This document shows positions 1,681 to 12,770 of a stretch of DNA of 12,770 nt, piece after piece (position 1 is the first letter of the stretch; every line of letters starts with the position of its first letter). Source of the DNA: Okeania sp. (lineage in GTDB: Bacteria > Cyanobacteriota > Cyanobacteriia > Cyanobacteriales > Microcoleaceae); NCBI RefSeq assembly GCF_035285525.1, contig NZ_JAYKGW010000201.1, positions 1-12,770 of the forward strand. Direction: 5' to 3'. The position numbers and the translations under genes were made by a program. Below the pieces are notes generated by a model, which was not told the DNA's origin, did no database searches, and saw only the letters and a program-made list of their open reading frames with translations.

Positions 1681-2418
1681 ATGACCATGTTGCTATTAAT
1701 AAAACAACTAACTAAAGTAATATTAACAGGTTCTTGTCTAGGATACATAATTATGATATCCTATTATCAGCCTTTAATGGCACAAGAACAAACAGAAGCA
1801 CCTTTTTGTGAAGGTAATCCCCCTACAGGCAGAGTTAAGTGTAATTATTCTAATGGAGATAATTATTCTGGAGATTTTGTCAATGGAAGACCACAAGGGA
1901 GCGGTATATATGTCTATGCTAATCGCGATCGCTATGAGGGGCAATTTCGTAATGGTCTTCCCAATGGACAAGGTACTTTTATATTTTCCAATGACGCTAG
2001 GGTTACAGGAGTATTCCAAAATGGACAAATTAGCTCTGGGACAATTATTTTCGCGAATGGTGATCGGTTTGTTGGAGATTTTAGATTAGTCCAGAATCTC
2101 TCTAGTAGTGTGATTAGCAGTCAGCCTACAGGTAAAGGTCAATTTATTTACGCTAATGGTGATCGTTATGAGGGAGAATTCTTTGCTGGAGAACCTTTTG
2201 GTCCAGGAGTTTTTACTCGCAGTGATGGAATACGATGTCAAGGAGATTTTTACAACGCAGCACTAGATGGCAAAGGAAATTGTACATATCCTAATGGAAT
2301 TCGCTATGAAGGGGAACTAAGGGGTGGAATACCCCATGGAGTGGGGATAATTATAGATTCTGAAGGAAAGCGATTTCCTGGAGTTTTCCGTAATGGTCAA
2401 AGAGAGGAAGAAACATAA
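1681..2418 (+). CDS. MORN repeat-containing protein with an N-terminal hydrophobic (signal/anchor-like) segment
   Basis: 245-aa ORF. The N-terminus is LLLIKQLTKVILTGSCLGYIIMI. It is followed by repeated Y.NGD.YEG.F..G...G.G units (YSNGDNYSGDF, YANRDRYEGQF, FANGDRFVGDF, YANGDRYEGEF, YPNGIRYEGEL), the classic MORN pattern. Confidence 0.9.
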   Translation: MTMLLLIKQLTKVILTGSCLGYIIMISYYQPLMAQEQTEAPFCEGNPPTGRVKCNYSNGDNYSGDFVNGRPQGSGIYVYANRDRYEGQFRNGLPNGQGTFIFSNDARVTGVFQNGQISSGTIIFANGDRFVGDFRLVQNLSSSVISSQPTGKGQFIYANGDRYEGEFFAGEPFGPGVFTRSDGIRCQGDFYNAALDGKGNCTYPNGIRYEGELRGGIPHGVGIIIDSEGKRFPGVFRNGQREEET

Positions 2419-2438
2419 TATTATTTTGATTAATACTA

Positions 2439-3343
2439 GGGCGTGTCATCAATTACAGAGGTTGACATTAAAGTATACTATACTGATCAACAATAACAAC
2501 CATAGGACGGCTCTAAATGACTAGACGTTATGGCTTCCGTGATGACCAATGGGAGCTACAAATTTACGACCAGGACGTAAAGGAACTGTCCTTCCGAAAG
2601 CACAGGACAATCGTCTCTTTGTGGAAGCTGTTTTATATAGATATGAAGCTGGAATTCTCTGGAGAGACTTACTATTATTGATTTGGGGACTTCCGCATTG
2701 TCCATACCAGTTTGAGTCCTTGGAGCCGTTCAGGAGTCTGGAACAGACTATTTTCAGCTCTAGCTGAAGATGCAGATAATCAATGTGCCATGATCGATGC
2801 TACTATTGTTCCTGCTCATCAACATAGTGCTGGAGCCAAGGAGAGTAGTGCAGAACAGGAAGATATTAGTCTTAGCTTTCCTAGGATTGAGTACCAACAT
2901 ACATGGGGTAGTAGATGCTCTCGGTAATCCCACCAATTTTTTTTAACTCCAGGCCAAGCCTGCGACTTAGATAGAGCAGATATTCTCTTGCCCCTTGTAG
3001 AAACTGATGCCATTTTGGCTGATAAAGCTTATGATACTCAGAAACGAGTAATTGGGCTTTTAACCCAAAGCGGAATAGAAGTAGTAATTCCACCTAAGAA
3101 AAATCGCAAAGTAAAGTCGTCACTACGATGAAATATTGTACAAAGCACCTCATCTCATAGAAAATTTCTTCGCTAAACTTAAACAGTATCGAGCCATCCC
3201 TACTAGGTATGATCAGCGTTCAGTAAACTTTCTAGGGGGAATTTATTTGGTAGCCTCAGTCATTTTATGAGCTCGCGCGATTACCATTTTCTAGAAAGCA
3301 GAGAATAACTCTAATGTCAACCTATTTAATTTATCACACACCC
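2439..3343 (+). mobile_element. Decayed IS5-family insertion sequence (IS427/IS1031-like size class, ~0.9 kb)
   Basis: The imperfect terminal inverted repeats are 2439-2473 (gggcgtgtcatcaattacagaggttgacattaaag) and the reverse complement of 3309-3343 (gggtgtgtgataaattaaataggttgacattagag), about 29/35 identical. CTAG sits at both junctions (2436-2439 and 3343-3346). An IS5-type transposase remnant lies inside. Confidence 0.8.
2517..3270 (+). pseudogene. IS5-family DDE transposase (DUF4096 N-terminus plus DDE_Tnp_1_2 type), multiply frameshifted
   Basis: Recognisable segments are scattered over three frames. MTRRYGFRDDQWE is in frame 3, from 2517. LRPGRKGTVLPKAQDNRLFVEAVLYRYEAGILWRDL is in frame 2. 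WSRSGVWNRLFSALAEDADNQCAMIDATIVPAHQHSAGAK is in frame 3. GLSTNIHGVVDALGNPTNFF is in frame 1. TPGQACDLDRADILLPLVETDAILADKAYDTQKRVIGLLTQSGIEVVIPPKKNRK is in frame 3, after a shift at the T8 run 2937-2944. YDEILYKAPHLIENFFAKLKQYRAIPTRYDQRSVNFLGGIYLVASVIL* is in frame 1, with the stop at 3268-3270. That is at least five frame changes, more than one programmed frameshift can explain. Confidence 0.85.
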
Positions 3344-3438
3344 TAGATTAATTGCAACAAAACTTAAAAAATTATTAGACTTAAAAAGGATAGGATAGAT
3401 TAACAATTTTACCATACTTAATTTAAGGGAAAAAAATC

Positions 3439-3648
3439 ATGGTTCAACGTGGTTCTAAAGTTCGGATTTTACGGAAAGAATCCTACTGGTATCAGGATAT
3501 TGGTACAGTTGCTTCTATTGACAAAAGTGGCATTAAGTATCCAGTTATTGTCCGCTTTGACAAAGTAAACTACAACGGTTTTAGTGGTAGTGCAGGCGGC
3601 GTTAATACTAATAACTTTAGTATGGATGAAGTTGTAGAGGTAAAATGA
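3439..3648 (+). CDS. psaE: Photosystem I reaction centre subunit IV (PsaE)
   Basis: The 69-aa product [68 protein letters not shown] matches the highly conserved cyanobacterial PsaE sequence as I remember it. A purine-rich stretch (aaggga) precedes the ATG. Confidence 0.95.
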
Positions 3649-3753
3649 CCGAAAGGCAGATAATTAGGTTCAAATTGTTTTGGGAATCTAAAACTATAGA
3701 AAAAGCTAAGTCTAGCAACTCTAAATTCAACAAGCAAAAGTAGCTAAAAACCA

Positions 3754-3962
3754 AGCATTCAGCTATTAGCTATTAGCTATCAGCCATTAATATCAAATCT
3801 ACCTTTAGAGAATAAAATTAATATTGACAAAAACTCCAAATCTTGCTAAGGTTTGGTTTCCAAACCTCTACAATATTGCATTGTACCAATACTACTGGAT
3901 TTGATATTATTTATTAAATTTATTCTCTAAAGCTAATAGCTCTTAGCTGACGGCTGAATGCT
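3754..3962. repeat. Composite inverted-repeat element between psaE and mutM (MITE-like or structured spacer)
   Basis: There are four perfect inverted pairs: agcattcagc 3754-3763 / gctgaatgct 3953-3962; gctattagc 3762-3770 / gctaatagc 3932-3940; atatcaaatc 3790-3799 / gatttgatat 3899-3908; ctttagagaataaa 3803-3816 / tttattctctaaag 3919-3932. A central perfect hairpin is aggtttgg-ttt-ccaaacct at 3849-3867. Confidence 0.6.
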
Positions 3963-4056
3963 GACGGCAAAAAATATCTCAGATAAATTTACTAGGAAAA
4001 AATTTTGGCAGTATCTATCTATAATAATAATAAAACTGTAGAAAATAGTTAGCATT

Positions 4057-4962
4057 GTGCCAGAACTGCCAGAAGTAGAAATAATAAAACGAGGTCTCAA
4101 TCAACTGACTCTCAATAAACAAATATTGGGTGGGGAAGTGTTGCTAGAACGCACGGTTGCTCACCCTACTTCTATTGATGATTTTTTAGATGGGTTACAG
4201 GGAAAGGCGATCGCCAGGTGGCATCGAAGAGGTAAATATTTGCTAGCCCAACTCTACAAATGGAAGAAAGAAACTTTAGAACTTAACTTGGTTAAACAAG
4301 AGGAGGATGGTTGGTTAGGAGTACATCTACGAATGACAGGGCAACTTTTATGGGTAAATCCAGAAGCAGAACTACACAAACACACCAGGGTTAGATTATT
4401 TTTTGGTCATAAATCAACAGAAGACAAAAAAAATTCTACCCATGAATTAAGGTTTGTAGACCAACGTACTTTTGGTAAAATGTGGGGAGTAAGACCAGCA
4501 ACAGAAATATCTCACATTATTACAGCTCTGAAACAACTAGGTCCAGAACCTTTTTTCCCAGCATTTTCCCCTGAGTATCTTAGCAAAAAATTACACAAAA
4601 GCCATAGACCTATCAAAACGACTCTTTTAGACCAAACTATTATTGCGGGGTTAGGTAATATTTATGCTGATGAAGCTCTATTTTTAAGTGGTATTAGACC
4701 AACAACTTTATCTAAAGATTTGACTAATCACCAATTAGAACAGTTACATTTAGCTATTATTAAGGTTTTAGCAACTTCTATAGATAAAGGTGGTACAACT
4801 TTTAGCAATTTTTTGAATGTTCAAGGAGTTAATGGTAATTATGGCGGTGTAGCTTGGGTTTATAATCGTTTTGGTCAGCCATGTCGCATTTGTGATACAT
4901 CTTTGGAAAAAATTAAGTTGGCAGGAAGAACTACCCATTTTTGTCCTCAATGTCAATCTTAG
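4057..4962 (+). CDS. mutM: Formamidopyrimidine-DNA glycosylase (Fpg/MutM)
   Basis: A GTG start gives (M)PELPEVE with the catalytic Pro2/Glu3. Other motifs are LGVHLRMTG, FVDQRTFG, the H2TH region GLGNIYADEALF, and the C-terminal zinc finger CRICDTSLEKIKLAGRTTHFCPQC. At 301 aa it carries two apparent lineage-specific insertions (YKWKKETLELNLVKQEED and KSTEDKKNST). Confidence 0.93.
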   Translation: MPELPEVEIIKRGLNQLTLNKQILGGEVLLERTVAHPTSIDDFLDGLQGKAIARWHRRGKYLLAQLYKWKKETLELNLVKQEEDGWLGVHLRMTGQLLWVNPEAELHKHTRVRLFFGHKSTEDKKNSTHELRFVDQRTFGKMWGVRPATEISHIITALKQLGPEPFFPAFSPEYLSKKLHKSHRPIKTTLLDQTIIAGLGNIYADEALFLSGIRPTTLSKDLTNHQLEQLHLAIIKVLATSIDKGGTTFSNFLNVQGVNGNYGGVAWVYNRFGQPCRICDTSLEKIKLAGRTTHFCPQCQS

Positions 4963-4993
4963 GGGATAGGCAGTAGAGAGTAGGGCGTAGGTA

Positions 4994-5016
4994 AGTTATC
5001 AGTTATCAGTTATCAG
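4994..5016. repeat. STRR-type heptamer tract (AGTTATC x3 plus a partial copy)
   Basis: The tract is agttatc agttatc agttatc ag. The same heptamer recurs at 5779-5791, 7121-7133 and 9028-9037. Confidence 0.85.
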
Positions 5017-5490
5017 CTTTTTTAGTTTTTATGTTTGAACATTAGATAAAGTTATGATTTTGAAATTTTGGCTTTAATATTTTAAATTTTACTACTTTTG
5101 CGTGACTGTTAAATGGGGAAATTTTTTTGGGTTGGTTAACGAGGTTTCAAGATTTTTAGCGCTTTTTTTTGATTTTGTGATATTATAGACATAGAGTATA
5201 ATTGGAGCCTTTTATTTCTTAATTTAGTTTTATAACTGTTATTTCTTATTATGCTGTTGTTTTGGTCTGTTTTTGTCTGAATTTGCTTTGCTTAAAATGA
5301 CTTTTTTTATCTGTCCGTTTTTTGCTGTTTTGACAAAGTGTTGATTTTGTGATAGCAAAGCAGGTTTTTTCGTTTTTTTTAATTGTATTTTGTTGAATAA
5401 TTAGTCTAGAGGATGGGCAAACAAAAACCAATAATTTTATCATATCACAGTTGGCTTGAGGATGCAACCCTAATTCTCTGATCGGCGCGA
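5005..5490 (+). other. Conserved T-rich non-coding segment, copy A (paralogous to 9027-9514); it precedes tandem array A
   Basis: It aligns colinearly by eye with 9027-9514 at roughly four fifths identity. Shared blocks are ggttaacgaggtttcaa.atttttagcgcttttttt, aaaatgacttttttt, tgttttgacaaagtgtt.gttttgtgatag, ttgaataattagtctag and aggatgcaaccctaattctct.atcggcgcga. No ORF is conserved between the copies. Confidence 0.8.
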
Positions 5491-5718
5491 TTTTTTTTGG
5501 GGAGTGCTTCAGAGAATGAAAATTTTGAGTAATTAGGGAAGGTTTGATAATCAAGCGATCGCTACTTTATTTCCAGGGGTGCTTCAGAGAATGAAAATTT
5601 TGAGTAATTAGGGAAGGTTTGATGGTAGAGGAAATTTCGACTTTTCCTGAGTGAGGGTGCTTCAAAGAATGAAAATTTTGAGTAATTAGGGAAGGTTTGA
5701 TAATCAAGCGATCGCTAC
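5491..5718 (+). repeat. Modular tandem array A (3 units of 75-77 bp)
   Basis: The units are 5491-5565, 5566-5641 and 5642-5718. Each has a T-run, then the core GG(G)TGCTTCA(G/A)AGAATGAAAATTTTGAGTAATTAGGGAAGGTTTGAT. The tail is either aatcaagcgatcgctac (HIP1 module; units 1 and 3) or ggtagaggaaatttcgac (unit 2). Confidence 0.9.
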
Positions 5719-5963
5719 CTTCTTCCTCTTTGTCAGCGATGGGTGTACCTCAAGGGCAAGGGAAAGCGCTGTCATTTCAGTTATCAGTTATTTTGATAGA
5801 CATTATATTTTAGTCTTTAATAAACCTAGTTTCTCTGCTTCAATAGAAAGAATTTAAGATCTGACATCTAACTTCTAAAAAATCTGTATAAGAAAAAATA
5901 TCTACTTAATCTAATTCCCCATTAAAATTTAATAGAGACAAGAAAAGAAAAGGAATCCATATT

Positions 5964-6182
5964 ATGGCAGATATTAAAAAAGGTAGTTTAGTTCGTGTTG
6001 TCCGAGAAAAACTGGAAAATAGTATAGAAGCTAAAGCCAGTGACAATAATTTTCCTCCTTATATTTTTGAAAGTAAAGGAGAAATTGTTGATACTAGAGG
6101 AGATTATGCTTTTGTTAAATTTGGTAAAGTTCCGACTCCGAATATCTGGTTGCGACTAGACCAATTAGAAAAATTTGAATAA
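5964..6182 (+). CDS. ndhO: NAD(P)H-quinone oxidoreductase (NDH-1) subunit O
   Basis: The 72-aa product [72 protein letters not shown] fits the remembered NdhO pattern (KKG.LVRVV.EKLENS.EAKASD..FP.Y.F.SKGEI...[12 protein letters not shown]). The small size and the neighbourhood with psaE/mutM are consistent. Confidence 0.8.
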
Positions 6183-6340
6183 AATTTTCTGTACAACCAA
6201 AACTTTATCAAAATAATGTGGTTCTAAAACCCCATCTTGATTGTACAGCATTCCCTATGGGAATCGGCGCAATATTTTTGGAGTCTTGTAAAATCCCCCT
6301 TACAAAAATCACTTCTGTGTGTAGAGCATGAGCTAGGAAC

Positions 6341-6377
6341 TTCTGACTTCTGACTTCTGACTTCTAACTTCTAACTT
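6341..6377. repeat. STRR-type heptamer tract (TTCTGAC x3, TTCTAAC x2)
   Basis: The tract reads ttctgac ttctgac ttctgac ttctaac ttctaac ttc directly. Confidence 0.9.
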
Positions 6378-6504
6378 CGTTAAAGGGAGCGAATAACTAT
6401 TCGTTCCCTATTAATCTCAAAAAGTTACTATTTTGGACAATAGTTAGACAAAAAAATTACTCTTCTATTCCCCAACTCCTGAAAATGGTTCAAAAAATTA
6501 AAAT

Positions 6505-6751
6505 CTAGTATTTGATTAAAGATGAAAGTTCATCCCACAAATTCGGGAAACTAACTCGGAAAGTATCAGGTTTTGCTAGTTCCATATCTTGGTATTCAAA
6601 ACCTGGAGCAACTGTTTCTCCTAACAAACCAACTATCACCTCCATTTCTATCAGTATTGATGCTCATTTGGGAACGGTAAGTCTCTTGAAAATAACCTCC
6701 TTCTGTATGTTTAACTAAAGATAATTTTTCAATTATATCTTGCTTATTCAT
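6505..6751 (-). pseudogene. Remnant of a DUF985 (Cupin_5) family cupin gene, with an internal deletion and frameshift
   Basis: On the minus strand, ATG at 6751 gives MNKQDIIEKLSLVKHTEGGYFQETYRSQMSINTDRNGGDS..., the family N-terminal motif (L..HPEGGYF.ETYRS). It then runs into TGA. A second frame continues VIVGLLGETVAPGFEYQDMELAKPDTFRVSFPNLWDELSSLIKY* (stop 6505-6507), the family C-terminal motif (LVGCTVAPGF.F.DFEL). The ~70-aa central cupin barrel is missing, and the 247-nt span is not a multiple of 3. Confidence 0.5.
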
Positions 6752-7325
6752 TAACAATTTTACCCCTGAAAATAATGTAAATCAAATAAAATAGAATTAC
6801 ATAAGGCTTACTGATTAAATATAAAAGCGTTGATAAATAAATATTTTAGCCTTTTGATTTATGTCGAAAGTAGTGCCTAACTTTTGGCTGTTGTTGTCTC
6901 AAAATAATAAATTTTTGACCTTAACTATCAGAAAATCTGGCCGTGACAAATAGTTTAAACTGTTCCCTCTTCCCTTCTTTTACTAACCGACTTATTCAGC
7001 AAATCCTAAGTATTTATTTAAGAGAAATATGGAGTTAGTAATATAAAAAATTTTGGTAACTTTTTGCTATTAGTAAAATCTCCTACTAGGACTTAAAATC
7101 AAACAAATTCTTTTTAAGTTATCAGTTATTTAGGAACTCCGTATCAAGCTGGTATTTTCAAACTTGAAACTTCCTTTTTTATACTATAGAAAGGAAAAAG
7201 TTGAGACCTTATTGCTACGAAAAAATTTTAGTAGTTATACAGAAGTAGTTTGGCTAACTAATATAACTTCTTACTTGGAGAAATATTTCGACTAAACCTA
7301 CTACTTGTTTATCATTACTAAAATA

Positions 7326-7904
7326 CTATGAATCAACTAATAATCCATAGGGAAGGGGATAGCTTTCTTCATCGTCACCGGTTTCAAACCAGTAGTGCAT
7401 ATGAGCTTCGACAAACTCCTCACGACTAATAGAACCTGACTTATCTGAATCAATACTATCAAAAGCTTGGTTCGCTTGTTCCGATTGCTCTACTCCAGTA
7501 TATATTGCTAGATACTTTCGGTACTCTTCACGAGATATTTCTCCAGAATGATCCGTGTCAATGATATCGAAAAAAATCTCGTTTTTATGTCTACCTGCTT
7601 GAAGTACTTCATCTGATGCTTCAGCCACAGTCTTTGCAACTTTAGTGATTAATTCTTCTTCAGTAATTTGAGTATTATCATCAACTGGTTCTCCTCCAGC
7701 TATAAAATGCTGAAACAGAGAATGACACATTTCGCGAATTTTTTCGTTCTTTGATGAATCAGTTTGCAGTCTAATTAAACGATTGGCAATTTCTTCAAAG
7801 TCGGAGAGGGTTAAAACCTCATTTTTATCGACGTCCATAAGTTTGAAGTAGGTCTTCATTTTAGCACGCCAAATACTTGATGATATAAACTTTTCAGGAG
7901 ACAT
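7326..7904 (-). CDS. EF-hand calcium-binding protein of the sarcoplasmic-calcium-binding-protein (SCP)/calerythrin type
   Basis: 192-aa ORF. The EF loops are DVDKNEVLTLSDFE (atypical, E at the Gly position), DTDHSGEISREEYRKY and DSDKSGSISREEFVEA. The N-terminal IWRAKMKTYFKLMDVDKNEVLTLSDFEEIANRL and the C-terminal WFETGDDEESYPLPYGLLV resemble, from memory, invertebrate SCP (..W.QKMKTYFNRIDFDKDG.I...DFE.MAERF ... FWGPLV). Confidence 0.85.
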   Translation of the reverse strand: MSPEKFISSSIWRAKMKTYFKLMDVDKNEVLTLSDFEEIANRLIRLQTDSSKNEKIREMCHSLFQHFIAGGEPVDDNTQITEEELITKVAKTVAEASDEVLQAGRHKNEIFFDIIDTDHSGEISREEYRKYLAIYTGVEQSEQANQAFDSIDSDKSGSISREEFVEAHMHYWFETGDDEESYPLPYGLLVDS

Positions 7905-8229: not shown

Positions 8230-9018
8230 TCACCTTGTCATAGTAGAAATAGTTTTTCCTAGTGACATTAATGTTCGTTTAAAGTTATCTGCACGACTCC
8301 GAAAATCATCACCTTTTCCTAAATCAAATGCCATTCCTTTGACTCCAGATAATAATTTTAAATAAACTTTACTTTCAGTGTCTTGAGTAGCAATAACTAA
8401 ATAAAATTGGTCTATTCCTACAGTTTGAATTTCTCTTACTACTTCCTCAATATTTTGAGTTTCTTGATCGGGAATATGTGGAGGAGCGTCTGTGATTAAA
8501 ACAATAACTTTATTACTGTCTGAATCAAAAGGTTGACGTAATGCAAACATCACTGCATCTAAACTACTTTCTGGTGCATCTCCTCCTCCATAAGCTTTTA
8601 GTTTAGATACTTCTTGACGAAAAAGATTGGGATTATTTGTAAATACTTCGCCATTAATTTTTAACACTCTATGTTCTTCATTAATTAGGCGATCACGAAA
8701 TTCTATTAAACCAACTCTAACTCTGACTCCATCTTTTTCTATAGTATCGGCAAATTCCATAATTGTTTCTTTTATGGCATTAATTTCACCCTCCATACTG
8801 CCAGTACAATCTAACACAAACATAATATCTGCTTGGCGTTTGGCTAAAATTTCTGCTGTTAGTTTTAGGGCTTCAACAAGTTCTTCTGGCGAATGACTTT
8901 TTATAGTTGGTTTTGATCTTGATGTTGTTTTTGGTTTTGTTTCTAATTCTGTACCGCATTGTTGACAGGATTTAGCGGTATCTAAATTTGAAGTTCCGCA
9001 ATTAAGGCAAGTTTTCAT
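8230..9018 (-). CDS. Zinc-ribbon plus von Willebrand factor type A (vWA) domain protein
   Basis: 262-aa ORF. The N-terminal zinc ribbon is CLNCG-x10-CQQCG. After a low-complexity linker, the vWA domain has the MIDAS motif DCTGSM (DxTGS) and a downstream VIVLITDAPPH strand. Confidence 0.88.
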   Translation of the reverse strand: MKTCLNCGTSNLDTAKSCQQCGTELETKPKTTSRSKPTIKSHSPEELVEALKLTAEILAKRQADIMFVLDCTGSMEGEINAIKETIMEFADTIEKDGVRVRVGLIEFRDRLINEEHRVLKINGEVFTNNPNLFRQEVSKLKAYGGGDAPESSLDAVMFALRQPFDSDSNKVIVLITDAPPHIPDQETQNIEEVVREIQTVGIDQFYLVIATQDTESKVYLKLLSGVKGMAFDLGKGDDFRSRADNFKRTLMSLGKTISTMTR

Positions 9019-9026
9019 TTCAGCGA

Positions 9027-9514
9027 TCAGTTATCAGCTTCTTTAGTTTTCATGTTTGAAAATTAGATAAAGTTATAGTTTTAAAATTTTGGTTTTAATA
9101 TTTTAAACTTTACCATTTTTGAGTGACTTTTCAATAGGGAAATTTTTTTGGTTTGGTTAACGAGGTTTCAATATTTTTAGCGCTTTTTTTCAATTTTGTG
9201 ATATCGTATACTTATGATATTCTTGGAGCATTTTATGTCTTGATTTAGTTTTATACCTGTTAATTCCTATTATGCCGTTATGTTGGGTTATTTTGTTCTA
9301 AATTGTCTTTGCTCAAAATGACTTTTTTTCTCTGCGCGTTTTTTTCTGTTTTGACAAAGTGTTAGTTTTGTGATAGTAGGGCATATTTTTTGTTTTTTTG
9401 GGAATTAGATTTGCATTGAATAATTAGTCTAGTTTATGAACGAGTAACACCAAGTGTTTTTATTCTACCACAGGTGCTTTCAGGATGCAACCCTAATTCT
9501 CTTATCGGCGCGAC
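9027..9514 (+). other. Conserved T-rich non-coding segment, copy B (paralogous to 5005-5490); it starts 9 bp from the vWA start codon
   Basis: It is colinear with copy A (see 5005-5490). The vWA gene (ATG at 9018, minus strand) has no upstream sequence other than this segment. Confidence 0.8.
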
Positions 9515-10032
9515 TTTTTTCAGGGGTGCTTCAGAGAATGATTGGGGGGGTAGTCAGGGAAGGTTTGATTGTCAGGCGATCGCTACTTTTTTTCAGGGGT
9601 GCTTCAGAGAATGATTGGGGGGTAGTCAGGGAAGGTTTGATTGTCAGGCGATCGCTACTTTTTTTCAGGGGTGCTTCAGAGAATGATTGGGGGGGGGTAG
9701 TCAGGGAAGGTTTGATTGTCAGGCGATCGCTACTTTTTTTCAGGGGTGCTTCAGAGAATGATTGGGGGGTAGTCAGGGAAGGTTTGATGGAAAAGGAAAT
9801 TTCGACTTTTTTCAGGGGTGCTTCAGAGAATGAAAATTTTCAGTAGTTAGGGAAGGCTTGATTGTCAGGCGATCGCTACTTTTTTTTTCAGGGGTGCTTC
9901 AGAGAATGATTGGGGGGTAGTCAAGGAAGGTTTGATGGAAAAGGAAATTTCGACTTTTTTTCAGGGGTGCTTCAGAGAATGATTTGGGGGGGGAGTAGTC
10001 AAGGAAGGTTTGATGGAAAAGGAAATTTCGAC
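9515..10032 (+). repeat. Modular tandem array B (7 units of 72-78 bp)
   Basis: Unit ends are at 9586, 9658, 9733, 9806, 9879, 9954 and 10032. The core is CAGGGGTGCTTCAGAGAATGATTGGGGGGTAGTCAGGGAAGGTTTGAT. Unit 5 keeps the array-A-like GAAAATTTTCAGTAGTTAGGG version. Tails alternate between tgtcaggcgatcgctac (units 1, 2, 3, 5) and ggaaaaggaaatttcgac (units 4, 6, 7). The G-run length differs between units (6, 7 and 9 G). Confidence 0.92.
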
Positions 10033-10191
10033 TTTTTCTTGGGGAGCAGCCAGAATCCAGAATCCAGGAGGAAGAGGAATCAGAATCACAGAAGAGCTAG
10101 CCAAAAAAATATTCCCTTAATTTTCTCCCATATCTTGCCCAAAATCCTAGAATGCATGATTTTTCGGGAACCGTACCAGAATTACCTAAAA

Positions 10192-10214
10192 GCTGGTACT
10201 CTATTAGTACCTGC
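10192..10214 (-). terminator. Candidate intrinsic terminator of the kinase-FGE gene
   Basis: The minus-strand RNA is gcaGGUACUaauagAGUACCagc followed by UUUU. The stem is 6 bp plus 2 bp with one mismatch, ~52 nt after the stop codon. The stem is AU-rich and short, so the call is weak. Confidence 0.35.
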
Positions 10215-10265
10215 AAAAGCTGAAACCAATTCTTAAACAACTGACAACTAAAAAAGACTAATTGA

Positions 10266-12368
10266 CTAGAAACGGACAGGTAAGACGACACGAAAACCCC
10301 TATTGATGCTGAACCGATCCCCACTGCTACAACTACGCCTGGCACATCGACAATCCCTAGAATAGTTGACCCAACTACCACCACGGATAACTCTGTGCAG
10401 TCTATATTTACTTTGTCCCCAAATTTCCCAAGCAGTTCCATCCGTAGGCGCTCCATTATAATTATTGTGCCAAAGATCCTGACACCATTCCCAGACATTC
10501 CCGTGCATATCATATAAACCAAAAGCATTGGGTGGAAAACGTCCCAGTGCTGTTGTTTGTTTTAGAAATTTACCTTGAGGAGCGTTACCATAAGGATAGT
10601 TACCGTCGTAGTTAACCAACTCAGGCGTTATAGTTTCTCCAAAATAAAAAGATGTAGTCGTCCCTGCACGACAAGCATATTCCCACTGACTTTCGCTAGG
10701 CAACCTGTAAATTTTCCCAGTTTTCTTGCGTAGCTTTTTACGAAAGTTTGTAGCTTCATCCCAACTCACACTTTCCACTGGGCGACTTCCTCCTTTAAAT
10801 CGAGAAGGATTATTTCCCATAATGGCTTGGTACTGGTTTTGAGTAATAGGATATTTGCTGATAAAGAAAGGTTGGAGAGTAACTTTATGTTGCAGATTTT
10901 CATCAGACTCTCTTTCAAACTCATCTTTTGGAGAGCCCATAAGAAAATTTCCCCCAGGAATATAAACCATTTCCAATACCACCTTCTCATCTAAATATTC
11001 TCTAAAAAATTCTGCTTCCTGGCGACGGCGACTAATTTCTTGTCCTTGGGAGTTGACCTTTATTACCTCAAAGCTAAATTTATCCGGTATTACTCCTTTA
11101 GGAAAGGGAGATTTTTTTTCAGAAGTCTCTTTTGGCATCCTCTCTTTAGGAGGTAAAGGTAACGGCTTTAGTGGTTTTGTGGGAAAGGGAGATGTTTCTT
11201 CTAGCTTCTCACTTCTATTTCCCAAGTCTTTCAGAAAATTTATAAATTGCGATATTTTTGTTTCTGACTCCTGAATGCTGGTTTCTGACTCCTGAATGTT
11301 GGTTTCTGACTCCTGAATGTTAGTTTCTGACTCCTGAATGTTAGTTTCTAACTCCTGAATGCTGGTTTCTAACTCCTGAATGTTGGTTTCTAACTCCTCA
11401 CTTCTGACTTTTGACTTTTGACTTTTGAATTGTATCTTCCACCATTCCTGAATATTTCCAGGACGACCTTCCTGCTCAAAAACCAAAGCCGACATTACCA
11501 ACTCTTGCCAAGGAGACTCTAAATCTTCTGGTTGCCAACCTTTTTGTTTTGATAAACGTTGCAAAGCATTAGGAGGTAACTGCCCAGTCAACATTTCATA
11601 AACCATCATCCCCACTTCAAAAATATCGCTCTCTACTCCCACTTCTCCTCCCCCAATAACTTCTGGTGCGGCATAAGCTTCCGTAAAAGTCCGAGTACTA
11701 GAAGTACTCATAGAAGTTCCGAAGGTTTGTTTTGCCGAACCAAAGTCGATCAATACTAACCGCCCTTCTGGGGTAAGTAAGATATTGTCGGGTTTTATAT
11801 CCAAGTGAAAAATTCCTTGTTGATGTACTGCGGATAATGCTAAGACGAGAGGAGAGATTATTTCTGCGATTTTCTCAGGGGAAAATTTTTTCTGAGGTTG
11901 AGAGTCTAATTCTGTTCTGAGAGTTTTTCCCGTGACTAACTCCATGACTAGATAGGCCGTATCATTTTCCTCAAATAAATCTTTTACTCTTACCACATGA
12001 GGGTGATCGAGTTTTGCTAATATTTGTCCTTCCCGGAGAAACCTTTGCAAACCCCGTTGAAATATTTCCTGTTGATTTTTGGGGATGGTAAAACCGCCAG
12101 TGGTAGGGTGGCGGAAAGCGTGGTTTTGGGGATAATATTCTTTGATGGCGACTGTTTTTTGTAATGATTTATGATACCCCTGATAAGTTACGCCAAACCC
12201 TCCTCGACCCAGGGCGTAGTTTATTTGGTACTTATTGCCATGAAGTTTCCTACCTGATGCAAGTAGATCGCGGGTGAGTGATGGTAGGTATGCGCCACAG
12301 TTGGGGCATAGTTTTGTGTTTAGTGGAAGACCGTCAGTATAGCAACCTGAGTTTAAGCAACGCATCAT
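10266..12368 (-). CDS. Multidomain protein: N-terminal zinc ribbon, Ser/Thr protein kinase, heptad-repeat/Pro-rich linker, and a C-terminal FGE/SUMF1-type (formylglycine-generating enzyme fold, C-type-lectin-like) domain
   Basis: 700-aa ORF. The zinc ribbon is C-x4-C-x11-C-x2-C at the N-terminus. Kinase motifs are GRGGFGVTY, VAIKEY, HLDIKPDNILL, DFGSAK and APE. The linker is (ETNIQEL/S)n followed by PFPTKPLKPLPLPPK. The FGE domain has YIPGGNFLMGSP, RLPSESQWEYACRAG, GLYDMHGNVWEWCQD and RGGSW...GFRVV. Confidence 0.92.
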   Translation of the reverse strand: MMRCLNSGCYTDGLPLNTKLCPNCGAYLPSLTRDLLASGRKLHGNKYQINYALGRGGFGVTYQGYHKSLQKTVAIKEYYPQNHAFRHPTTGGFTIPKNQQEIFQRGLQRFLREGQILAKLDHPHVVRVKDLFEENDTAYLVMELVTGKTLRTELDSQPQKKFSPEKIAEIISPLVLALSAVHQQGIFHLDIKPDNILLTPEGRLVLIDFGSAKQTFGTSMSTSSTRTFTEAYAAPEVIGGGEVGVESDIFEVGMMVYEMLTGQLPPNALQRLSKQKGWQPEDLESPWQELVMSALVFEQEGRPGNIQEWWKIQFKSQKSKVRSEELETNIQELETSIQELETNIQESETNIQESETNIQESETSIQESETKISQFINFLKDLGNRSEKLEETSPFPTKPLKPLPLPPKERMPKETSEKKSPFPKGVIPDKFSFEVIKVNSQGQEISRRRQEAEFFREYLDEKVVLEMVYIPGGNFLMGSPKDEFERESDENLQHKVTLQPFFISKYPITQNQYQAIMGNNPSRFKGGSRPVESVSWDEATNFRKKLRKKTGKIYRLPSESQWEYACRAGTTTSFYFGETITPELVNYDGNYPYGNAPQGKFLKQTTALGRFPPNAFGLYDMHGNVWEWCQDLWHNNYNGAPTDGTAWEIWGQSKYRLHRVIRGGSWVNYSRDCRCARRSCSSGDRFSINRGFRVVLPVRF
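11260..11400 (-). repeat. In-frame 21-bp tandem repeat (6 full plus 1 partial copy) inside the kinase-FGE gene
   Basis: GTTTCTGACTCCTGAATG(C/T)T(G/A) recurs every 21 bp from 11260, and the last three copies have GTTTCTAAC. It encodes ELETNIQ/ESETNIQ heptads. It is followed by the heptamers cttctga cttttga cttttga cttttga at 11401-11428. Confidence 0.95.
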
Positions 12369-12454
12369 TTTCAGTAAGGATGAGGGAAGAAGGAAGAAGT
12401 TAAAAGATTTTCTGCAATTATACCGTGGCTGAGTTTTCTTTCAGAAGTTAAAAG

Positions 12455-12770
12455 TTGTCTATTTACCTGAGAATTTTTCATTTTCTGAAGCACCCGAATT
12501 TAAGAAGTGGTTGCCTGAGCGATCGCCTCCTTGTCTATATTACCTGAGAATTTTTCATTTTCTGAAGCACCCGAAATTGAGAAGTAGTGTTTTGACTCGG
12601 AAAAATCCTTCTATTTACCTGAGAATTTTTCATTTTCTGAAGCACCCGAATTTAAGAAGTGGTTGCCTGAGCGATCGCCTCCTTGTCTATATTACCTGAG
12701 AATTTTTCATTCTGTGAAGCACCCGAAATTGAGAAGTAGTGTTTTGACTCGGAAAAATCCTTCTATTTAC
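12455..12770 (-). repeat. Modular tandem array C (at least 4 units; inverted relative to arrays A/B; truncated by the window end)
   Basis: The reverse complement of the core is CGGGTGCTTCAGAAAATGAAAAATTCTCAGGTAA, matching the array A/B core GGTGCTTCAGARAATGAAAA. Tails alternate between a HIP1 module (cctgagcgatcgcctcc) and ttttgactcggaaaaatcc. The 152-bp double units 12459-12610 and 12611-12762 differ at only 2 positions. Confidence 0.9.

Follow-up and report, generated by a model that had tools for sequence, protein, structure and literature searches.

In a 12,770-bp contig that makes up the whole of the DNA analysed here (the window) and comes from an Okeania sp. metagenome-assembled genome (MAG), a T-rich leader of ~490 nt is followed on the plus strand by array B, a run of seven head-to-tail units of 72-76 nt each (9514-10041). 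Comparison of sequences indicates that this leader and its array belong to a multi-locus family of non-coding elements, each consisting of a leader and tandem units of ~75 bases, which is apparently undescribed. The reading that we favor, and to which we give a probability of roughly 40%, is that these are leader-driven non-coding RNA loci on the core strand, with units that were tandemly amplified and that each re-display a 16-nt motif, and with a leader that also acts as a divergent promoter for PP2C or vWA genes. This proposal builds on the anatomy, family distribution, synteny, conserved promoter-like sites, and polarity described below, from which we infer transcription, its strand, and any RNA function.

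Array B and its G-runs

Array B is seated between the start codon of a vWA gene (9018, minus) and the stop codon of a kinase-FGE gene (10266, minus). Tandem Repeats Finder places it at 9515-10014, with a period of 72, 6.8 copies, 84% matches, and a score of 676. A hidden Markov model (HMM) of the unit counts exactly seven units in array B (E 1e-14 to 1e-22), three in a second copy, A, and four in a third array, C. Together, these two results bear out the original prediction of a seven-unit tandem array. Each unit is built from a T-run, the core GGTGCTTCAGAGAATGA, a variable middle, GGGAAGGTTTGAT, a tail, and another T-run, and only two types of tail occur, GCGATCGCTAC or GGAAATTTCGAC. The seven units, by the start of their cores on the plus strand, are:

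9525: unit 1, 73 nt, G-run of 7 at 9544-9550
9598: unit 2, 72 nt, G-run of 6 at 9617-9622
9670: unit 3, 75 nt, G-run of 9 at 9689-9697
9745: unit 4, 72 nt, G-run of 6 at 9764-9769
9817: unit 5 (9817-9892), 76 nt, no G-run; A-like, with the ancestral A-rich middle GAAAATTTTCAGTAGTTAGGG, matching outgroup units in Dapis (L018)
9893: unit 6, 73 nt, G-run of 6 at 9912-9917
9966: unit 7, 76 nt, G-run of 8 at 9986-9993

These G-runs are the sole runs of at least six G or C anywhere in the window. Lengths of 6, 7, and 9 had been noted before and are all present, but that list was incomplete, since a run of 8 and a unit with none also occur. The one unit said to retain the array-A-like version is unit 5. 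An independent short-read assembly (SRR19514071) breaks at unit 1 of array B and 25 nt into leader A, and the orthologous array B in Okeania sp. SIO3I5 carries a scaffold gap. The number and order of units in array B and the lengths of its homopolymers are therefore provisional and may be limited by assembly.

In every outgroup copy, whether from Dapis (L018), Okeania SIO3I5 (L118), or Trichodesmium (L138), the core is followed by GAATGAAAAT, and thus the G-run is derived and specific to the window lineage and to array B. L118 also holds a likely intermediate, GAATGAATTGGTTGAGTAGT, as well as GAATGAATTGGTTGAGTAGTTAAGG, a plausible precursor of GAATGATTGGGGGGTAGTCAGGG. The direction of divergence proposed at the outset, from the A-like version toward the G-run version, is upheld by these comparisons. 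Across the family, the G-run falls in the least conserved segment of the unit, where canonical units carry a hairpin. Differences in G-run length among near-identical units plausibly fit slippage, the alternative being assembly or homopolymer error. A G-quadruplex array was rejected, because RNAfold run with its G-quadruplex option never places such a structure in the minimum-free-energy fold; in these folds, the G-run pairs with the U-run of the unit through G-U pairs.

The leader and its promoter-like sites

The features of the window that concern the leaders and arrays, and the genes on either side of array B, are:

4999-5735, plus strand: copy A, with its leader (4999-5492) and three units (cores 5503, 5578, and 5656), between mutM/fpg and ndhO
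8230-9018, minus strand: vWA gene, zinc-ribbon vWA (Pfam), whose start codon adjoins the leader edge
9020-9513, plus strand: leader of copy B; family-specific from about 9041/9055, with generic CAGTTAT heptamers at 9020-9040
9196-9223, plus strand: candidate promoter P1, -35 TTGTGA (9196-9201), 16-nt spacer, TG-extended -10 TATTCT (9218-9223), oriented to the array
9214-9241, minus strand: candidate promoter AAGACA-16 nt-TATCAT, reported by the scan, facing vWA and overlapping P1
9351-9356, plus strand: TTGACA, -35 of a candidate P2
about 9415-9524, plus strand: proximal leader module (PLM), ~135 nt; PLM HMM match 9415-9553, E 2e-32
10266-12368, minus strand: kinase-FGE gene, a Ser/Thr kinase with a C-terminal FGE-sulfatase (C-type-lectin-like) domain (Pfam)
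12455-12770, minus strand: array C, at least four units of 75-77 nt in two alternating types; runs off the contig end

Leader B is 84% identical to leader A over 300 nt and 80% over 459 nt, which confirms that the two arrays share a leader. The claim that this leader starts beside the vWA ATG holds in part: the similarity between leaders A and B does begin at ~9020, next to the ATG at 9018, but its first ~20-35 nt are generic heptamers, and homology to the outgroup leaders begins at ~9055. Outside the window, homologues of leader B reach 82% identity in Dapis sp. BLCC M172 (L018) and 78% in Okeania SIO3I5 (L118), with an overall range of 78-83%; in Trichodesmium they reach 76% in MAG_R01 (L109) and 73-77% in two copies on a metagenome contig (L138). 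The PLM is more widespread than the full leader and occurs in L074 (four copies), L088, L062, L120, L122, and others. Both the window-type leader and the PLM always lie 5′ of the core strand. At L074 of Okeania SIO3I5 (6640-7600), a module of proximal leader, long unit, and partial unit is repeated four times with a period of ~275 nt.

Seven leader copies from three genera keep a P1-type site, TTGTGA (TTGTTA once)-16 nt-TAnnnT. Their -10 hexamers read TATAAT, TATTCT, TATACT, TAAAAT, or TATGAT, so that T1, A2, and T6 are invariant and positions 3-5 are free. This substitution pattern is as would be expected for a working -10 box, although P1 is no more than a match to the consensus. On the minus strand, TATCAT or TATACT (again TAnnnT) is retained in all seven copies, and the leader may thus be a back-to-back divergent promoter region. 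The P2 -35 is invariant in both window leaders (winA and winB), L018, L118, and L138 and is deleted in L109; the -10 candidates for P2 are poor and lack T6. A vWA promoter inside the leader, as the original prediction placed it, is plausible given that PP2C or vWA start codons abut the leader edge and that the minus-strand TAnnnT is present in 7/7 leaders. Read-through from the kinase gene is a candidate alternative source of vWA transcription.

The leader also appears to be constrained. Between the window and L118 it is 78% identical, compared with 70% at four-fold degenerate sites of the adjacent orthologous kinase (n=163), a comparison in which T-rich composition raises the chance identity of the leaders. 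The intergenic DNA 3′ of the kinase is unalignable between the same two contigs, and invariant blocks of 10-25 nt are spread through the seven leader copies. These observations suggest that the leader is under modest purifying selection, a signal to which the PP2C/vWA promoter may contribute.

A family of leaders and tandem arrays

We scanned one genome per species for two exact cores 48-78 nt apart, and about 50 cyanobacterial loci emerged. Once parsed, they comprise 54 arrays and 545 units in 13 genomes, all of them cyanobacteria of the Okeania/Dapis/Trichodesmium group:

Okeania sp. SIO3I5: 18 arrays
Okeania sp. SIO2F4: 11 arrays
Other Okeania genomes (4): 5 arrays
Dapis genomes (3): 12 arrays
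T. erythraeum IMS101: 1 array of 8 units, NC_008312 about 5,774,714-5,775,300
Trichodesmium MAG: 2 arrays
Two related MAGs: 5 arrays

The arrays hold 2-34 units, and their periods are mostly 75-76 nt, with a mode of 76. Matches of the scan in Streptococcus, Carnobacterium, and other non-cyanobacterial genomes are single, differ in span, and form no arrays; we regard them as chance-like and unrelated. A search of metagenome contigs with a 20-mer of the leader gave no match. Another 17 metagenome contigs bear arrays, and in most of them a contig end falls in the array. Because arrays break short-read assemblies, they explain the contig ends in these MAGs, and one end of the window itself lies inside array C.

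Arrays A, B, and C of the window share the 16-nt core GGTGCTTCAGARAATG. Judged from its sequence, array C belongs to the same family as the other two, a point that had gone unremarked. It reads toward the start of the kinase gene and stops ~85 nt short of the kinase ATG, so that the kinase-FGE gene is bracketed by arrays C and B, which both point inward.

The canonical unit of the family consists of the core, a short linker, a 7-8-bp hairpin (ACTATTGC-TCTATAC-GCAATAG), AAGAAAAATTTCAC-TACTCATCTCC, and ~8 variable nt. As a whole it is a long imperfect palindrome; its hairpin is imperfectly kept, has decayed in many arrays, and is absent from the window units. The canonical leader of ~170 nt differs from the window-type leader and is partly related to it. 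It comprises a hairpin, GACTGACACAGCTAAAACTGTGC, a T6-7 run, TATAAT or TATAGT, and GTTATGGCAAG...GAGGATTTTTTTCTAATGCAAC...AAGGTGTGTCAGTC, followed by unit 1. It is present at full length at seven loci, always on the core strand. Its hairpin shows a compensatory change from CACAG/CTGTG to CAAAG/CTTTG, the variant being that of L033, and the same hairpin closes three arrays at their 3′ ends, again always on the core strand. Another hairpin element, of 23-28 nt (TAGTAGACTGACACAGCTAAAACTGTGC), stands before canonical leaders and closes some arrays (L009, L024, L028, L033, L041, L062, L102, L103, L064, and L061). Between array B and the kinase stop, at 10173-10199, the window has a 7-bp hairpin, GTACCAG-N13-CTGGTAC, that contains CTAAAAGCTGG; it recalls this array-flanking element and could be a candidate bidirectional terminator.

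No recurrent family of neighbouring genes was found at the about 50 array loci. The largest neighbour cluster, of 18 ORFs at 12 loci, looks by eye like tetratricopeptide (TPR) repeats and was not taken as a specific partner, and the kinases near other arrays are without FGE domains. For 32/47 downstream neighbours, the array lies at the 3′ end of a convergent gene. We found no description of a leader-plus-array family in the literature searched. The transcriptome paper on T. erythraeum describes other repeats, and its text makes no mention of the coordinates of the T. erythraeum array (PMC4143802).

These same features invite a different explanation, namely, that the arrays are a selfish or neutral satellite: a palindrome-containing intergenic repeat, resembling repetitive extragenic palindromes (REPs) or miniature inverted-repeat transposable elements (MITEs), that grows in tandem by slippage or unequal crossing-over and has no host function. 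The core would then be kept only because a protein acting in trans, for example an enzyme resembling a transposase or RAYT, recognises it, or through concerted evolution. Turnover is indeed fast. Units within one array are 90-96% similar and arrays are far more divergent from each other, and copy number changes at orthologous loci (18, 3, and 7 units; at least 4 versus 11.7). The palindromic unit, its sometimes inverted hairpin loops, the decay of the hairpin in many arrays and its absence from the window units, the lack of a conserved partner gene, and the abundance of repeats in the host genomes all fit such a satellite. So does L108, where two inverted copies of the hairpin element (6044 and 6190) flank an array of the 9-mer TGGGAAGTG and give it a MITE-like look. 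However, the leaders, with their promoter-like sites and fixed polarity, have been conserved from one genus to another. Outside arrays, only 5 solitary cores and 5 solitary hairpins occur in 405 kb, most of them at array edges. Finally, no transposase or tyrosine-transposase gene recurs beside the arrays, and no tandem cores were found in viral contigs. On balance we consider a satellite without host function doubtful, though it is a serious competitor of the leader-driven RNA.

Synteny with a diversity-generating retroelement

The C-terminus of kinase-FGE (10283-10387, minus) is 73% identical to the template repeat (TR) at 871-1035 of L109, which lies next to the reverse transcriptase (RT) gene of a diversity-generating retroelement (DGR) in Trichodesmium sp. 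MAG_R01. By eye, most differences between the two fall at TR adenines; some of the differences between the species involve other bases. What had been called a putative variable region is thus a DGR-type variable region (VR). Proteins that combine a kinase with a C-type-lectin-like domain are common DGR targets in cyanobacteria (PMC7517822). Compared with its L118 ortholog, the window kinase-FGE is 82-84% identical in nucleotides and 74% in amino acids, and its last 68 nt are unalignable. The order of features at two of the orthologous loci is as follows:

L118 (Okeania SIO3I5): sense array, 11.7 units of 74 nt, the ortholog of array C, with three PLMs before it (2362-3235); kinase-FGE 4001-5617; inverted mosaic array about 6136-6990; leader 6988-7483; PP2C 7504; kinase-FHA 8755
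L138 (Trichodesmium contig): kinase-FGE with VR 645-2135; bAvd; RT 3094-4215; TR 4219-4382; on the opposite strand, leader, PLM, and single core (5109 to 4600), pointing at the TR; duplicated unit of PP2C 5′ fragment and leader; PP2C; kinase-FHA; vWA

The layout of L109 matches that of L138. In Dapis sp. BLCC M172, L018 (6069-7160, minus) carries a degraded DGR RT, an avd-like ORF encoding a four-helix bundle, and the first 39 nt of a TR that is cut off by heptamer repeats; RT, TR remnant, and avd-like ORF are all convergent with the leader and array. At L120, a VR and avd are convergent with a PLM and array. The convergent orientation toward VR or TR is conserved in three genera. The DGR of another cyanobacterium (L137), which served as a negative control, has neither leader nor array. 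Okeania SIO3I5 is without avd-RT-TR, and the window is also without PP2C and kinase-FHA.

The leader edge abuts the PP2C start codon in L118, L109, and L138, and PP2C or vWA starts there in four genomes. At L138 (5110-5896), a PP2C 5′ fragment is tandemly duplicated together with the distal leader, a sign that the leader edge may behave as a single unit with the PP2C start. As for vWA, it lies 7-14 nt after kinase-FHA on four relatives' contigs with a closely related vWA (L109, L113, L116, and L117); one Trichodesmium MAG has at its vWA homologue a 1-kb heptamer-rich spacer and no array. The question had been raised of whether the kinase and vWA genes adjoin in relatives, and the answer is that kinase-FGE and vWA are not an ancestral pair, as vWA follows kinase-FHA. 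Judging from these contigs, the element has probably long resided between the DGR and the PP2C operon. Okeania appears to have lost avd-RT-TR, and the window lineage also PP2C and kinase-FHA; the latter loss would have brought the vWA start to the leader edge. The core is single in Trichodesmium L109 and L138, Okeania has seven or more mosaic units, and the single unit was probably amplified in Okeania and Dapis.

The original prediction had plus-strand transcription from array B run antisense into the 3′ end of the kinase gene; in an extended form of this idea, array B would be a cis-antisense or insulator element of the DGR locus. Transcription from the leader would pass through the units into the 3′ end of the TR (Trichodesmium and Dapis) or of the kinase-FGE VR (Okeania) and modulate TR-RNA or kinase mRNA, or the element would insulate the PP2C operon from a highly expressed DGR. 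Convergence of the leader and units with a TR or VR is seen in the window, L118, L109, L138, L018, and L120, and the 3′ end of the kinase gene is genuinely homologous to a VR. In T. erythraeum, TR-RNA ranks with the most abundant RNAs (PMC4143802), and cis features 3′ of remote VRs have been proposed as important (PMC7517822). Yet the convergent cases may be a single ancestral locus held by synteny and hence one event rather than several. Moreover, copy A and about 50 other arrays do not lie beside a TR or VR, and conservation with L118 does not extend to the 225 nt that separate array B from the kinase stop. Queries with TR and VR match only kinase 3′ ends and true TRs, never leaders or units, so the arrays were rejected as a DGR component (TR, VR, or initiation of mutagenic homing [IMH] site), and their relation to the DGR is one of adjacency only. 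We thus find a dedicated DGR function unlikely, and the antisense link of array B to the DGR region is suggestive only. A bolder version, in which a conserved convergent non-coding RNA gene of cyanobacterial DGR loci runs antisense into TR or VR and controls mutagenic retrohoming or expression of the diversified kinase, with the other arrays supplying the 16-nt motif in trans, strikes us as similarly improbable.

RNA, DNA, or neither

The leader-driven non-coding RNA that we favor can be stated as follows. Array B and its leader would be one locus of a lineage-specific family, each member of which would have a conserved leader with a sigma-70-type promoter and, on the same strand, 1 to about 34 units sharing GGTGCTTCAGARAATG. 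Driven by the leader promoter, a non-coding transcript of the plus strand would extend across the proximal leader and all the units. Those units would have been amplified from a single Trichodesmium-type unit by slippage or unequal recombination, and the repeated motif would make the RNA (or the DNA) a multivalent platform or a multi-copy seed. The leader would probably also serve as the divergent promoter of the PP2C/kinase-FHA/vWA operon, which in the window is reduced to vWA. The G-run would then have arisen by a recent substitution where the unit is least constrained.

Several results weigh against such an RNA. First, a PP2C/vWA promoter on the other strand could by itself explain why the leader is conserved at the array B locus. 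Second, generic promoter-consensus scans gave no excess over shuffles, and neither the arrays nor the sequence after them yielded an intrinsic terminator. Third, folding offers little: no consensus RNA structure was obtained for the PLM on either strand, mean folding z-scores of units are weak (-0.8 on the core strand and -1.0 on the opposite strand), those of the window units are about 0 to +1, and mismatches in stems carry no strand signal (57 of the G-U type versus 75 of the A-C type). In addition, some arrays or units have the hairpin loop in inverted form, an indication of events at the DNA level. Finally, the core is the most informative part of the unit, a conservation that is partly due to ascertainment because the scan required two exact cores. 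What is conserved is a linear 16-nt motif, not a fold.

A linear motif could also be read by a protein on DNA, and the arrays might be a multi-site operator, an enhancer, a nucleoid-organising platform, or an extended upstream region of the PP2C/vWA operon. Tandem arrays of this kind have a precedent in the centromere-like sopC of the F plasmid. The core contains a dyad, TTCA-N5-TGAA, that is kept in all subtypes, and its recurrently variable positions within arrays, 10 and 12, lie in the 5-nt spacer; the lack of RNA structure and of a strand signal also fits. Against this stand the invariant GGTGC outside the dyad and the shortness of the dyad itself (4+4 nt), the distance of 0.5-1 kb or more between arrays and start codons, the strict polarity relative to leaders, and the lack of a candidate binding protein linked to the arrays. 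Of the explanations weighed here, a protein-binding array is the one to which we give the least credence.

Other assignments of the units were tried and rejected or came back empty. Rfam 15 applied to the window and eight canonical loci gave no family for arrays or leaders at E<=1; two matches to snoRNA models below the gathering score, snoR130 at 5508-5627 (copy A units) and snoR125 off-array in L049, were taken as chance. ARAGORN found no tRNA or tmRNA in the units. A protein-coding repeat was discarded because the periods do not divide by 3, the reading frame changes within the sole ORF, and Pfam gives no match; tiny ORFs within the units are not conserved. A cluster of intrinsic terminators was excluded because the T-runs come after 8-nt palindromes unable to form stable hairpins; terminator-like sites in 8900-10400 number 0, versus 1.7 expected.

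Comparison with known systems

It is useful to set the family beside known repeat systems. Its closest analogue is the NsiR1 tandem small RNA (sRNA) array, which in heterocystous cyanobacteria is represented by 12 copies upstream of hetF in Nostoc PCC 7120 (PMC9045159). Both are cyanobacterial intergenic tandem arrays of short (~60-80 nt) non-coding units, with near-identical central and diverged peripheral copies, and both lie beside and partly antisense to a regulatory gene. However, each NsiR1 copy has a DIF1-motif promoter and yields a discrete ~60-nt sRNA (PMC9045159), whereas in the new family promoter-like sites sit in the shared leader. Within individual units no sigma-70-like site or terminator was detected, but GAGAAT/GAAAAT in the core could be a weak -10. 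The new family also has dozens of loci per genome and NsiR1 one, and the arrays do not match the Rfam NsiR1 covariance model.

CRISPR arrays resemble the family in their AT-rich leader with a promoter on one side, their unidirectional array, the short palindrome in their repeats, and their tendency to break short-read assemblies. In contrast, the new family repeats whole units of 72-86 nt, longer than CRISPR repeats, and has no unique spacers. A CRISPR array was rejected on this ground, as whole units repeat at 84-96% identity and only two tail types occur. Neither the window nor the ORFs that flank arrays showed any cas genes, and T. erythraeum IMS101, which bears one array of the family, has no cas genes (PMC4143802).

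REP sequences with their mosaic form (BIMEs), enterobacterial repetitive intergenic consensus (ERIC) sequences, and MITEs share with the family their multiple intergenic copies, imperfect palindromes, frequent location at convergent 3′ ends, and fast evolution; unlike these dispersed single or inverted copies, the new family forms direct head-to-tail arrays with leaders. A REP or MITE was rejected because of the rarity of solitary copies given above and the absence of a recurrent transposase and of target-site duplications. The type III toxin-antitoxin RNA ToxI is likewise a promoter-driven tandem RNA repeat array, although the promoter of the new family is only a candidate. ToxI units are ~36 nt long, occur in 2-6 copies, and are always followed by a gene for a toxin endoribonuclease. 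The new family differs in being without a conserved adjacent protein gene, and a type III RNA antitoxin was rejected because no conserved gene lies downstream of the arrays.

The family may be relevant for several questions. First, ~40% of the Trichodesmium genome is non-coding and mostly transcribed for unexplained reasons (PMC4143802, PMC4649490), and a polar, conserved family in Trichodesmium, Okeania, and Dapis is a concrete class of element within this non-coding DNA. Second, transcription of the arrays, if it occurs, would make them the next case of tandem non-coding RNA arrays in cyanobacteria after NsiR1, but one with many loci and driven by shared leaders. Third, a member beside a DGR that is aimed at TR or VR in three genera provides a lead on the control of DGR activity or of remote targets. 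More practically, array copy number could be used as a strain marker.

Other features of the window

The ORFs of the window match MORN, psaE, mutM, ndhO, EF-hand, vWA, and kinase-FGE in Pfam. A perfect TATAAT in GGTATAATTGC (12420-12430, minus), ~55 nt upstream of the kinase ATG and just past the end of array C, is a candidate kinase promoter. Within the kinase gene, between the parts for the kinase and FGE domains, an in-frame repeat of 21 nt x 6.6 (11260-11398) codes for repeated ETNIQES; the SIO3I5 ortholog cannot be aligned over this stretch.

Heptamers (such as AGTTATC or ACTTCTG) resembling short tandemly repeated repetitive (STRR) sequences occur at 1647-1679, 4994-5016, 5777-5791, 6339-6378, 9020-9040, and 11400-11428. 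They border copy A on both sides and copy B on its left, are also found beside the Dapis and Trichodesmium copies, and may serve as recombination substrates. Elsewhere, 39-nt inverted repeats (85% complementary; 2436-3346) surround overlapping ORFs in three frames (2517-2927), which look like the remnant of a frameshifted insertion sequence (IS) transposase. The contig starts with a perfect tandem repeat of 36 nt x 3.4 (1-124), and CCACCT/CCACCACCG repeats lie just downstream (336-381); these probably belong to a gene for a repeat protein that is truncated where the contig ends.

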